Virus genome (UHGV): UHGV-2157276
Source of the DNA: a virus
Strand: one strand, 5' to 3'
Length of the DNA stretch: 11,904 nt
Part shown: positions 8,960-11,904 of the stretch, one piece after another
How positions within the stretch are numbered: position 1 is the first letter of the stretch
Layout of the letters: every line of letters begins with the position of its first letter
Translations under genes and position numbers: made by a program
Notes under the pieces: model-generated
What the model was told of the DNA's origin: nothing
What the model saw: only the letters and a program-made list of their open reading frames with translations
Database searches by the model: none

Positions 8960-8971
8960 GGGCGGCGACCT
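8960..8971. other. cosN: lambda 12-nt cohesive-end site (GGGCGGCGACCT), flanked by cosQ-like and cosB-like sequence
   Basis: Exact GGGCGGCGACCT preceded by ...GATCCGACAGGTTACG (lambda right end) and followed by TCGCGGGTTTTCGCTATTTATGAAAATTTTCCGG (lambda left end). Confidence 0.85.
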
Positions 8972-9148: not shown

Positions 9149-9694
9149 ATGGAAGTCAACAAAAAGCAGCTGGCTGACATTTTCGGTGCGAGTATCCGTA
9201 CCATTCAGAACTGGCAGGAACAGGGAATGCCCGTTCTGCGAGGCGGTGGCAAGGGTAATGAGGTGCTTTATGACTCTGCCGCCGTCATAAAATGGTATGC
9301 CGAAAGGGATGCTGAAATTGAGAACGAAAAGCTGCGCCGGGAGGTTGAAGAACTGCGGCAGGCCAGCGAGGCAGATCTCCAGCCAGGGACTATTGAGTAC
9401 GAACGCCATCGACTTACGCGTGCGCAGGCCGACGCACAGGAGCTGAAAAATGCCAGAGACTCCGCTGAAGTGGTGGAAACCGCATTCTGTACTTTCGTGC
9501 TGTCGCGGATCGCAGGTGAAATTGCCAGTATTCTCGACGGGATCCCCCTGTCGGTGCAGCGGCGTTTTCCGGAACTGGAAAACCGACATGTTGATTTCCT
9601 GAAACGGGATATCATCAAAGCCATGAACAAAGCAGCCGCGCTGGATGAACTGATACCGGGGTTGCTGAGTGAATATATCGAACAGTCAGGTTAA
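9149..9694 (+). CDS. nu1: Terminase small subunit Nu1, 181 aa, full length
   Basis: MEVNKKQLADIFGASIRTIQNWQEQGMPVLRGGGKGNEVLYDSAAVIKWYAERDAEIENEKLRR...; N-terminal winged-HTH. Overlaps the A start by 26 nt as in lambda. Confidence 0.95.
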   Translation: MEVNKKQLADIFGASIRTIQNWQEQGMPVLRGGGKGNEVLYDSAAVIKWYAERDAEIENEKLRREVEELRQASEADLQPGTIEYERHRLTRAQADAQELKNARDSAEVVETAFCTFVLSRIAGEIASILDGIPLSVQRRFPELENRHVDFLKRDIIKAMNKAAALDELIPGLLSEYIEQSG

Positions 9695-10730
9695 CAGGCT
9701 GCGGCATTTTGTCCGCGCCGGGCTTCGCTCACTGTTCAGGCCGGAGCCACAGACCGCCGTTGAATGGGCGGATGCTAATTACTATCTCCCGAAAGAATCC
9801 GCATACCAGGAAGGGCGCTGGGAAACACTGCCCTTTCAGCGGGCCATCATGAATGCGATGGGCAGCGACTACATCCGCGAGGTGAATGTGGTGAAGTCTG
9901 CCCGTGTTGGTTATTCCAAAATGCTGTTGGGTGTTTATGCCTACTTCATAGAGCATAAGCAGCGCAACACACTTATCTGGTTGCCGACGGATGGTGATGC
10001 CGAGAACTTTATGAAAACCCACGTTGAGCCGACCATCCGCGATATTCCGTTGCTGCTGGCGCTGGCTCCGTGGTATGGCAAAAAGCACCGGGATAACACG
10101 CTCACCATGAAGCGTTTTTCCAATGGTCGTGGCTTCTGGTGCCTGGGCGGTAAAGCGGCAAAAAACTACCGTGAAAAGTCGGTGGATGTGGCGGGTTATG
10201 ATGAACTTGCTGCCTTTGATGAGGATATTGAACAGGAAGGCTCTCCGACGTTCCTTGGCGACAAACGTATTGAAGGCTCGGTCTGGCCAAAGTCCATCCG
10301 TGGCTCCACCCCCAAAGTGAGAGGCACCTGCCAGATTGAGCGTGCAGCCAGTGAATCCCCGCATTTTATGCGTTTTCATGTTGCCTGTCCGCACTGCGGG
10401 GAGGAGCAGTACCTTAAATTTGGCGATAAAGAGACGTCGTTTGGCCTCAAATGGACGCCGGATGATCCCTCCAGCGTGTTTTATCTCTGCGAACATAATG
10501 CCTGCGTCATCCGCCAGCAGGAACTGGACTTCACTGATGCCCGTTATATCTGCGAAAAGACCGGGATCTGGACCCGTGATGGCATTCTCTGGTTTTCGTC
10601 ATCCGGTGAAGAGATTGAGCCGCCGGACAGCGTGACCTTTCACATCTGGACGGCGTACAGCCCGTTCACCACCTGGGTGCAGATTGTCAAAGACTGGATG
10701 AAAACGAAAGGGGATACCTTCTGCCCGTAA
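9669..10730 (+). pseudogene. A: Terminase large subunit gpA, N-terminal 350 of about 641 codons, truncated at a deletion junction
   Basis: MNISNSQVNRLRHFVRAGLRSLF...[14 protein letters not shown] then 3 unrelated codons (FCP) and stop. Walker-A-like KSARVGYSK is present; the C-terminal nuclease half is absent. Confidence 0.85.
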
Positions 10731-11904
10731 GGTGAATGGTAAGGCGCTTTCAGCGGATATAACACTGACGCCGAAAGATATTGGTACGCTTAACTCAACA
10801 ACAATGTCATTCAGCGGTGGTGCTGGTTGGTTCAAATTAGCAACGGTAACCATGCCACAGGCGAGTTCTGTTGTTTCAATTACGTTGATTGGTGGCGCGG
10901 GATTTAACGTGGGGTCACCTCAACAGGCAGGTATATCTGAACTTGTTTTGCGTGCAGGTAATGGTAATCCGAAGGGGATTACTGGTGCTTTATGGCAGCG
11001 CACATCGACAGGGTTTACAAATTTTGCCTGGGTCAATACATCTGGTGATACTTACGATATTTACGTTGCAATCGGAAATTATGCGACTGGTGTAAATATT
11101 CAATGGGATTATACCAGTAATGCCAGCGTGACGATTCATACGTCACCAGCATATTCTGCTAATAAGCCGGAAGGGTTAACGGACGGTACAGTTTATTCAC
11201 TCTATACGCCATCAGAGCAGTTTTATCCGCCTGGCGCACCAATCCCGTGGCCATCAGATACCGTTCCGTCTGGCTATGCCCTGATGCAGGGGCAGACTTT
11301 TGACAAATCTGCATACCCGAAACTTGCAGCCGCTTATCCGTCAGCCGTGATCCCTGATATGCGTGGCTGGACGATTAAGGGCAAACCCGCCAGTGGTCGT
11401 GCCGTATTGTCTCAGGAACAGGACGGCATTAAATCGCACACCCACAGCGCCAGCGCATCCAGTACGGATTTGGGGACGAAAAACACATCGTCGTTTGATT
11501 ACGGAACCAAATCCACGAATAACACCGGGGCGCATACCCATAGTATTAGCGGGACTGCAAATAGTGCCGGTGCGCACCAACACAAGAGTTCCGGTGCATT
11601 TGGTGGCACGAACACGAGCATTTTCCCTAATGGTTATACCGCGATTTCAAATCTAAGCGCGGGGATTATGAGCACAACAAGCGGTAGTGGCCAGACTCGT
11701 AATGCAGGGAAGACATCATCAGATGGTGCTCATACCCACTCGCTGTCCGGCACTGCTGCAAGCGCAGGCGCACATGCACATACTGTCGGTATTGGTGCTC
11801 ATACGCACTCCGTTGCGATTGGCTCACACGGACACACCATCACCGTTAACGCTGCTGGTAACGCGGAAAACACCGTCAAAAACATCGCATTTAACTATAT
11901 TGTG
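10720..11904 (+). pseudogene. stf: Side tail fibre (Stf-type) gene fragment, 5'-truncated, open to the end of the window
   Basis: Frame 1 is open from 10702 to 11904 and is not in the ORF track because it has no stop. Hand translation ends ...[60 protein letters not shown], the His-x-His repeat C-terminal region of lambda-family Stf. Possible internal starts are GTG 10732 and ATG 10804. Confidence 0.75.

Follow-up and report, generated by a model that had tools for sequence, protein, structure and literature searches.

A recurrent deletion endpoint at the shaft boundary of the side-tail-fibre gene in lambdoid cryptic prophages

The DNA analysed here, referred to as the window, is a stretch of 11,904 nucleotides of the virus genome UHGV-2157276 and consists of a lambdoid cryptic prophage; its first letters belong to the host gene ybhC, and int comes next. 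Towards its right end a truncated copy of the large terminase subunit gene A is fused to the interior of a side-tail-fibre gene, stf, in an allele that we designate stf1. An original prediction, made from the letters alone, had recognized this fusion as a deletion junction. Beyond that account, both endpoints of the deletion are recurrent breakpoints, and at least 37 distinct rearrangements (26 at stf1 and 11 at a second allele, stf2) end on the same stf sequence, GGTCGGG-TA, in which the hyphen marks the breakpoint as it does throughout. The stf endpoint points to an undescribed process of site-directed breakage or recombination.

The A-stf1 junction and its truncated products

The gpA reading frame (positions 9669-10730) is A-like up to 10717 and then reads the three unrelated codons FCP and a TAA stop at 10728-10730. 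A different frame, preceded by a stop at 10699-10701, is open from 10702 to the end of the window at 11904 and encodes tail-fibre sequence. Translation thus agrees with the original prediction at each of these points, and alignments to intact A and stf genes support its view that A is fused out of frame to the interior of a fibre gene. The breakpoint, formerly put near 10718, can be placed more exactly. Matches to A genes among 50,697 phage records searched by megablast stop exactly at 10717, and an 80-mer spanning the junction shows identity to intact stf from 10714/10715 onward. In a three-way comparison the window reads ...GGGGATAC-CTTCTGCCCG, intact A reads ...GGGGATAC-GGGAAAAC, and intact stf reads ...GGTC(G/A)GGTAC-CTTCTGCCCG. 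Because the trinucleotide TAC (10715-10717) is common to intact A and intact stf, the crossover lies within it; a short identity was thus present at both breakpoints and one copy of it has been kept. Its first two nucleotides, TA at 10715-10716, are the invariant crossover dinucleotide of the rearrangements described below.

In the intact relative of strain 2013C_3678 (locus L126) the two breakpoints are at 22407 in A and at 44767-44770 in stf, a distance of 22.4 kb, or ~19.7 kb without a 2.7-kb IS66 insertion in L126. The ~20 kb deletion joins A codon 350 to stf codon 588/589, and W, B, C, D, E, the tail genes, J, lom and the N-terminal 60% of stf are lost. The claim that one event removed the entire morphogenetic region therefore holds as far as the removal is concerned, the head and tail region being gone; that it was a single event is plausible and not proven. 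Of 5426 complete E. coli genomes only 11 contain the junction 80-mer in full, and these 11, two IMG/VR contigs and two metagenome contigs have the same junction. The Prokaryotic Genome Annotation Pipeline (PGAP) already lists both halves as pseudogenes in strain RM10410 and the ten other complete genomes, so the A-stf1 junction itself represents ordinary prophage decay and is a known kind of object that has already been annotated.

The truncated terminase gene, A' (9669-10730, forward strand), contains 353 codons and a stop; it is A-derived to 10717, takes FCP and the stop from stf DNA, and is described by PGAP as 'missing C-terminus'. Intact A is 1926 nt long and encodes 641 residues with ATPase and nuclease domains, the latter at residues 322-600. 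Pfam finds GpA_ATPase alone in the 353 residues of A' (PF05876, E = 1.2e-50, residues 47-285), and neither the C-terminal endonuclease domain (PF20454) nor the full length of ~641 residues is present. Since its relatives have 641 residues and A' has no nuclease domain, the alternative that 9669-10730 is a complete natural gene of some other terminase family is refuted.

The fibre fragment, 'stf (10718-11904, forward strand), is the C-terminal, receptor-binding part of the side-tail-fibre gene and runs ~15 nt past the window end; PGAP gives it as a 1203-nt pseudogene 'missing N-terminus'. Its identity to the last 1.2 kb of intact stf (2961 nt, 986 residues) is 98-99%, and it keeps the last ~398 residues, from codon 588/589 onward. 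Collar (E = 4e-12) and Phage_fiber are the only Pfam matches, and the order of C-terminal Collar/Phage_fiber followed by tfa, which is beyond the window and is seen intact in identical loci, is that of a side-tail-fibre gene. The N-terminal attachment domain (PF08400) and the shaft repeats (PF03406), both found by Pfam in the intact L126 Stf, are missing. With an ATPase domain only on one side, and neither attachment domain nor shaft on the other, neither product is predicted to be able to do its original job.

No start of the fibre frame lies upstream in the window. In-frame codons that could serve are, as originally noted, a GTG one nucleotide past the A' stop (TAA-G-GTG; 10732-10734, forward strand) and the first ATG of the fragment (10804-10806, forward strand), and no promoter-like site was found in 10400-11000. 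Judged by sequence only, the one feature in favour of translation of the fibre fragment is the TAA-G-GTG layout, which makes termination-reinitiation conceivable. It has been reported that infecting lambda acquires Qin and Rac stf-tfa DNA by recombination (PMC3945230), and the most plausible use of the kept stf-tfa cassette is recombinational pickup by an infecting phage.

Recurrent endpoints in stf and A

The intact stf1 site, GGTCGGG-TA-CC, to the right of which stands the 22-mer CTTCTGCCCGTAAGGTGAATGG, is situated at the boundary of the shaft repeats and the receptor-binding module. We scanned IMG/VR, metagenomes and complete genomes for the sequence just right of the junction and mapped the foreign left flanks on three reference prophages. 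There are ~100 natural copies with the left flank ...AATGCGAATGGTCGGGTAC, and 26 distinct foreign left flanks, every one of which ends in (T)AC. Complete genomes supply examples in which the same stf nucleotide is fused to the capsid gene E (VE-T10) or to a J fragment (PapRG-04-4). Of the 26 flanks, 20 are collinear with the phage map, in direct orientation, and so are deletions; three more are probably direct, judged from the orientation of their open reading frames, and one is inverted. Their left ends are spread over the early region, ylcI, Nu1, A (of two terminase types), the portal gene, E, K, J, lom and stf itself.

The stf2 allele is broken at the homologous position. What it has in common with stf1 is the 9-mer GGTCGGGTA alone, whose product Gly-Arg-Val closes the shaft, and the two are unrelated further left and everywhere to the right. 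The nohA-stfQ junction of K-12 Qin reads ...GAGTGAATA-TA-ACCGCGCTG, and the intact stf2 allele reads ...AAAAGGTCGGG-TA-ACCGCG. The 22-mer on the right of the stf2 site is [A/G]CCGCGCTGACAGA... In a sample of ~120 loci fetched with a probe 190 nt downstream, the stf2 TA has 10 distinct foreign left flanks, which with K-12 Qin nohA makes 11 partners; nine of these 10 could be mapped and all nine are direct. As the 9-mer is all that stf1 and stf2 share, the breakpoint is tied to the boundary sequence and not to the retained DNA, and its determinant appears to be on the side that is lost. Among roughly 300 loci examined the 9-mer is essentially confined to the two stf boundaries, and the GGTCAGGTA copies that A and J have on the other strand do not act as breakpoint hot spots. 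When both alleles are considered together, the 31 left flanks that can be aligned to a reference comprise 29 collinear deletions, one inversion and one unmapped flank. Nearly all events at the stf site are thus collinear deletions in which the receptor-binding module and tfa are kept and all to the left is lost.

Could the recurrence of the stf TA be a coincidence, a product of shared ancestry or an assembly artefact, laid over random illegitimate recombination mediated by microhomology? Other junctions in stf do show unremarkable microhomologies (AA, TTAT) spread along the gene, and the aaaD-tfaD junction of K-12 DLP12 has a 3-nt overlap. At the stf site, however, endpoints are not scattered and one nucleotide is preferred, with ~37 distinct left partners at a single dinucleotide in two alleles versus seven junctions in the adjacent 431 nt. 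The latter figure comes from a site-independent control probe placed 431 nt downstream, which retrieved 129 loci; 25 of these are broken at the stf1 site, only seven distinct deletion junctions fall within the 431 nt between site and probe, and one additional break in this interval is the natural border of an allele. Sequences to the right of the junction differ from type to type (92-99.5% identity to the reference), and the events must therefore have occurred on different alleles, independently. Several types are present in finished long-read genomes from unrelated laboratories, and overlaps of 0-3 nt are unable to make assembly chimeras. We regard a random origin of the pattern as very improbable.

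The stf1 allele itself is common, being present in 1335 of the 5426 complete E. coli genomes, and its site region (L126 44710-44829) has no megablast match in the 50,697 phage records; phages carrying the allele seem never to have been isolated. An allele of the L284 type, with the same protein motif in different DNA, was seen in only 44 genomes, a small sample, and its host is a phage-plasmid without an invertase. No description of a recurrent GGTCGGG-TA breakpoint was found in the searchable literature, whose coverage excludes older subscription papers. A second, minor recurrent TA, GGGGAT-TA-CTGG, is at 10980-10981 in the window (L126 45032) and has two different left partners (L247 and L261). 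The window also contains a 9-bp hairpin (TGGTAATCC..GGATTACTG) at 10962-10984, with this minor TA in its 3' arm.

The other end of the window's deletion is recurrent too. The A site, GGGGA-TA-C (10710-10717, forward strand), contributes the same A nucleotide to junctions with six right partners: stf1 in the window, stf2 in the Qin type (L005), the portal gene B at 24536 (L281), and J at 39492 (L282), at ~41151 (L283) and at 41319 (L280, strain VE-V10-F). All right partners with known undeleted sequence have TA. Individual TA dinucleotides also change roles, in that the one at J 39492 is a right partner in L282 and a left partner in PapRG-04-4, and the one at J 40633 is a left partner for two different stf positions.

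Some of these fusions have entered annotation as intact proteins. The Qin-type A'-'stf2 fusion has an 8-nt overlap, GGGATACG, and is in frame, giving 601 residues; in W5-6 Qin (L005 5670-7475) PGAP names this chimera of A and the Stf C-terminus, widespread in E. coli, a 'terminase large subunit family protein'. A 1002-residue in-frame chimera of A and the Stf C-terminus in JKHS016 (L278 706-3714) is listed as a 'terminase gpA endonuclease subunit'. In practical terms, both entries under the name of terminase, of 601 and 1002 residues, are chimeras.

The simplest history for the window's junction is a single deletion, which is plausible given that 1000 nt of the window's A' match the intact A of L151 without a difference. 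A two-step origin, which we consider unlikely, would begin with an earlier A-site deletion (A'-'J or A'-'stf2), followed by a second event to stf1 or by the import of stf1-tfa with a fixed end through homology-facilitated illegitimate recombination. It would suit the joining of one A nucleotide to six right partners, and the A' sequences of L281 (A'-B) and L280 (A'-J), only 1/1000 nt apart, are compatible with successive deletions. Strain VE-V10-F moreover has A'-'J in the same prophage at the lambda attachment site (attLambda): in L280 (3229019-3235812) A' ends at the same nucleotide as in the window and is joined to the J C-terminus, followed by lom with an IS1 interruption and then by an intact stf of another allele, and L280 is a less-deleted sibling of the window's prophage. 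Against two steps, the window's A', matching intact A as it does, differs from that of VE-V10-F at 29/1000 nt and from the Qin type at 16/1000, VE-V10-F has another stf C-terminal allele, and more steps are needed than for a single event. One further locus, the metagenome contig L268 (OEQO01001004.1), has the window's A-stf1 junction on an A' that differs at 27/1000 nt and is nearer to the Qin-type A'; either an independent recurrence of the identical junction or a later gene conversion would account for it.

Crossover anatomy and the process acting at the stf site

Undeleted partner sequence could be recovered for 21 partners. Between them and the stf site the microhomology is anything from 0 nt (Nu1) to 8 nt, and in every case the stretch that could hold the crossover contains or adjoins the TA of GG-TA-CC. 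T is found at +1 in 19 of the 21 and A at +2 in 20, the exceptions (TG and CA) being one base off. Beyond TA there is a modest likeness to the stf site (C at -4, G at -2, C at +4) relative to a background of 756 reference TA dinucleotides.

The explanation that we favour, and hold to be probable, is that the window carries the scar of an internal deletion of ~20 kb and that a specific process acts at GGTCGGG-TA. This process would make a fixed DNA end, or a strand exchange, at the stf site, and the fixed stf end would be joined to an upstream site that needs little beyond a matching TA, a few extra matching bases being helpful. Candidate agents are an enzyme that transfers strands site-specifically, breakage of one or both strands, and an arrest of replication. 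In each case the prophage would be disarmed in one step with its host-range cassette retained.

One form that the process could take, tentatively the first choice, is a nick, double-strand break or replication arrest at GGTCGGG-TA, after which the 3' end ...GGTA, on the leftward-copied strand, would pair over 0-8 nt with an upstream TA and prime synthesis anew. Such a course accords with an endpoint that is fixed on one side only, the right side always being the one retained, with the collinearity of the deletions, with a microhomology of 0-8 nt anchored on TA whose extra matches are mainly at +3/+4, and with the position of the shared 9-mer on the lost side, as is expected of an obstacle or cleavage signal. 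Nevertheless, template switching would have to span as much as 44 kb, which is a long way, the stf site has no unusual secondary structure (z-scores of +0.9 and +0.5 versus shuffled sequence, on which ground a hairpin or cruciform was dropped as a candidate), and no Chi site was found in the window. We know of no protein that binds the 9-mer, which also counts against a break or arrest, and an exact reciprocal inversion is left unexplained.

This inversion came to light on two contigs. Searching with one scan pattern gave no match for the natural left flank with a foreign right side, and an unbiased left probe gave a single foreign right side among 105 loci, in L286, which reads ...GGTCGGG-TA-AGTGCCGTTATAG. 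The junction of L040, ...GGGCGCTG-TA-CCTTCTG, is its exact reciprocal, and the undeleted partner of both is ...GCGCTG TA AGTGCCG in a portal gene, in the opposite orientation. Both contigs are from one metagenome and together amount to an inversion with no base lost or gained, which looks like the signature of a conservative exchange.

Conservative site-specific recombination, in which stf is the true site and upstream TA dinucleotides are quasi-sites, so that a circle is excised or a segment inverted, is the second form to be weighed; we consider it possible and somewhat doubtful. It might have a 2-bp TA core, in the manner of a serine recombinase, or a scissile bond 3' of GGTCGGG, in the manner of a tyrosine recombinase or topoisomerase. 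Besides the reciprocal junctions, the occurrence of TA in 19-20 of 21 undeleted partners, with exceptions one base off, speaks for it, as do the reuse of TA sites in other pairings (A with J 39492, J 39492 with stf, A with stf) and the enrichment of exact CGGN-TA in partner left flanks (6 of 31 versus ~3% expected). So does the position of the site at the constant/variable boundary of a fibre gene, as for the invertase sites of e14; the invertase sites of Mu and P1 are also at the constant/variable boundary of a tail-fibre gene. Yet the stf site lacks symmetry and any likeness to gix, cix, pix or hix, no second 9-mer is nearby and no recombinase gene stands beside tfa in these loci, and the sole reciprocal pair is metagenomic. 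The ratio of 29 deletions to one inversion is unlike an invertase, and such an excess could follow from selection for disarmed prophages. Neither form reaches an even chance in our estimate, break or arrest being ranked first and conservative exchange second, and the remainder belongs to other or combined explanations.

Several more specific candidates were tried for the stf site and rejected. A Din-invertase site (26 bp, with an AAACC-NN-GGTTT centre and imperfect dyad symmetry) was sought, and nothing was found within 7 mismatches, the e14 pix sites being recovered as a comparison; the position is that of a Din site, in that the 9-mer stands precisely at the module boundary in two alleles whose C-terminal modules are unrelated. 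An invertible or shufflon-like segment was set aside as there is no second 9-mer copy nearby in either orientation, and a transposon-like element as there is no inverted repeat of the left end of the cassette downstream of tfa. Restriction of the KpnI type at GGTACC accounts neither for the TA requirement in the partners nor for the stf2 site, GGGTAACC. The right flank required of a pseudo-att for lambda Int or DLP12 Int (argU anticodon loop ACCTTCT) is not common to the stf2 site, and cleavage by RusA 5' of CC does not fit the stf2 position.

The right end of the cassette shows features of its own. No recombinase gene is next to or downstream of tfa in L001 or L126, and pinQ follows tfaQ only in Qin. 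Just past tfa in L126 (46637-46662) is a Din-invertase-like core, GTACCTTGAACC TT GGTTTTAACA, the only one in L126; no invertase gene was found near it, the first 7 nt of the core, GTACCTT, are identical to the hot-site sequence, and it may be the relic of an invertible segment. The Tfa 3' end after GATATTGAGTGGCC (...IEWP) is hypervariable over the last 4-7 codons, with 33 continuations in ~190 loci. The conserved IEWP motif marks where the cassette ends on the right, at a module boundary that is sharp and natural; deletion scars at this boundary were considered and discarded, the variants being natural C-terminal tails.

A number of observations weigh against a specific process, or against a single deletion as the origin of the window's scar. 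The only inversion known is from a short-read metagenome, one of its contigs begins just 61 nt before the junction, and no inversion junction was found in complete genomes. The A endpoint is common to five other junction types, and a single event is for that reason unproven. Counts of distinct junctions represent surviving lineages only, so that deletions are overrepresented among the outcomes wherever disarmed prophages are selected for. The preference of the partners beyond TA is weak once the local TA background is used, the stf site has neither dyad symmetry nor a Din-invertase (gix/pix) consensus, and we found no recombinase or nuclease that could be linked to it.

A more speculative proposal, which we hold at a low probability, is that GGTCGGG-TA is the signal for both recognition and crossover of an undescribed site-directed activity of E. 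coli or its lambdoid prophages, one that breaks DNA or exchanges strands and normally swaps receptor-binding cassettes of stf C-terminus and tfa at the border of shaft and receptor module, the remnants being off-target products. Such off-target reactions with upstream TA would make active prophages harmless in one step and keep the host-range cassette as a reservoir for incoming phages.

The host prophage and known systems compared

Left of A' the window retains the cosN cohesive-end 12-mer GGGCGGCGACCT (8960-8971, forward strand) as an exact match, so that the packaging site is kept, and an intact gene for a Nu1-type small terminase subunit, nohD (9149-9694, forward strand; 181 residues), annotated as the nohD DNA-packaging protein in identical loci. 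Loci that are 99.8-99.9% identical to the window have the gene order quuD-ompC/nmpC-essD-rrrD-rzpD-bor-ybcV-ybcW-ylcI-nohD-A'...appY-like regulator, which is of the DLP12 type when compared with K-12. In these loci 'stf is followed by an intact tfa and then by the appY-like regulator, and the element lies between ybhC and bioA. Integration at argU beside ompT, as in DLP12, is not seen; ybhC and bioA flank the lambda attachment site, and the host element is best described as a DLP12-like lambdoid cryptic prophage at that site (ybhC/bio). It does not lie in Rac. Against NZ_CP028760, NZ_CP042350 and others (99.8% identity) the window aligns in two pieces that span 16.4-17.8 kb, and there is therefore another internal deletion, of ~4.5-5.9 kb, elsewhere in the window, presumably the one that the original prediction called the left junction. 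In the AT-rich, unannotated 1.5 kb between tfa and the appY-like regulator, L001 has a stretch (16276-16419) whose translation (..GGFEPP..) resembles that of a tRNA gene in its 3' portion. It is possibly an old argU-type attR of DLP12 that was brought along to the attLambda location.

Taken alone, the A-stf1 junction documents only how the window's prophage was disarmed, and its recurrence matters more. Prophage decay is usually held to consist of random deletions on which selection then acts; at the stf site breakage has struck one dinucleotide in dozens of independent lineages, beside a 9-mer common to otherwise unrelated fibre alleles, and the receptor-binding cassette has been kept every time. 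A dedicated activity, if there is one, would account for the exceptional persistence of fibre C-termini and tfa among the remnants in DLP12, Qin and related cryptic prophages, the targeting of modular host-range exchange to one boundary, and the domestication of prophages in one step.

The nearest parallels are in K-12. The DLP12 pseudogenes aaaD and tfaD (b4634/b0561) belong to a prophage of the same type, with the order essD-rrrD-rzpD-bor-ybcV-ybcW-ylcI-nohD-A', and there too a truncated A is fused to DNA of the tail-fibre region with the morphogenetic genes deleted. In K-12 DLP12, however, A (L126 21666) is joined to tfa (46111), so that the stf fragment is lost as well, and the prophage is at argU, whereas that of the window is at ybhC/bio and has its junction on the recurrent stf TA. 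The nohA-stfQ junction of K-12 Qin resembles the window's in ending on the homologous GGTCGGG-TA, there in the second stf allele. In the widespread Qin-type A'-'stf2 fusion the left end is the very A nucleotide at which the window's junction begins; unlike the window's, it has the other stf allele, is in frame, and ends 190 nt downstream of the stf2 hot site.

Among processes that leave one endpoint fixed, Parkinson in 1971 reportedly described Int-promoted lambda deletions with one end at att, and Iida and co-workers in the 1980s are said to have described recombination by Cin and Gin at secondary, 'quasi' crossover sites. Both resemble the stf events in having one fixed endpoint with variable others that share a few bases, and in yielding deletions and inversions, and the true site of the Cin and Gin invertases is likewise at the constant/variable boundary of a tail-fibre gene. 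The stf site differs in that it has no att-like or gix/cix/pix-like sequence, and its deletions far outnumber inversions. Bierne, Ehrlich and Michel (1991) reportedly found a deletion hot spot at terB, and Michel and Ehrlich (1986) are said to have found hot spots at the origin nicks of M13 and pC194. These share with the stf site a single fixed endpoint, short homologies at the variable end and one direction of deletion, and the stf site differs from them in having no recognisable Ter or rolling-circle origin and in one apparently conservative inversion.

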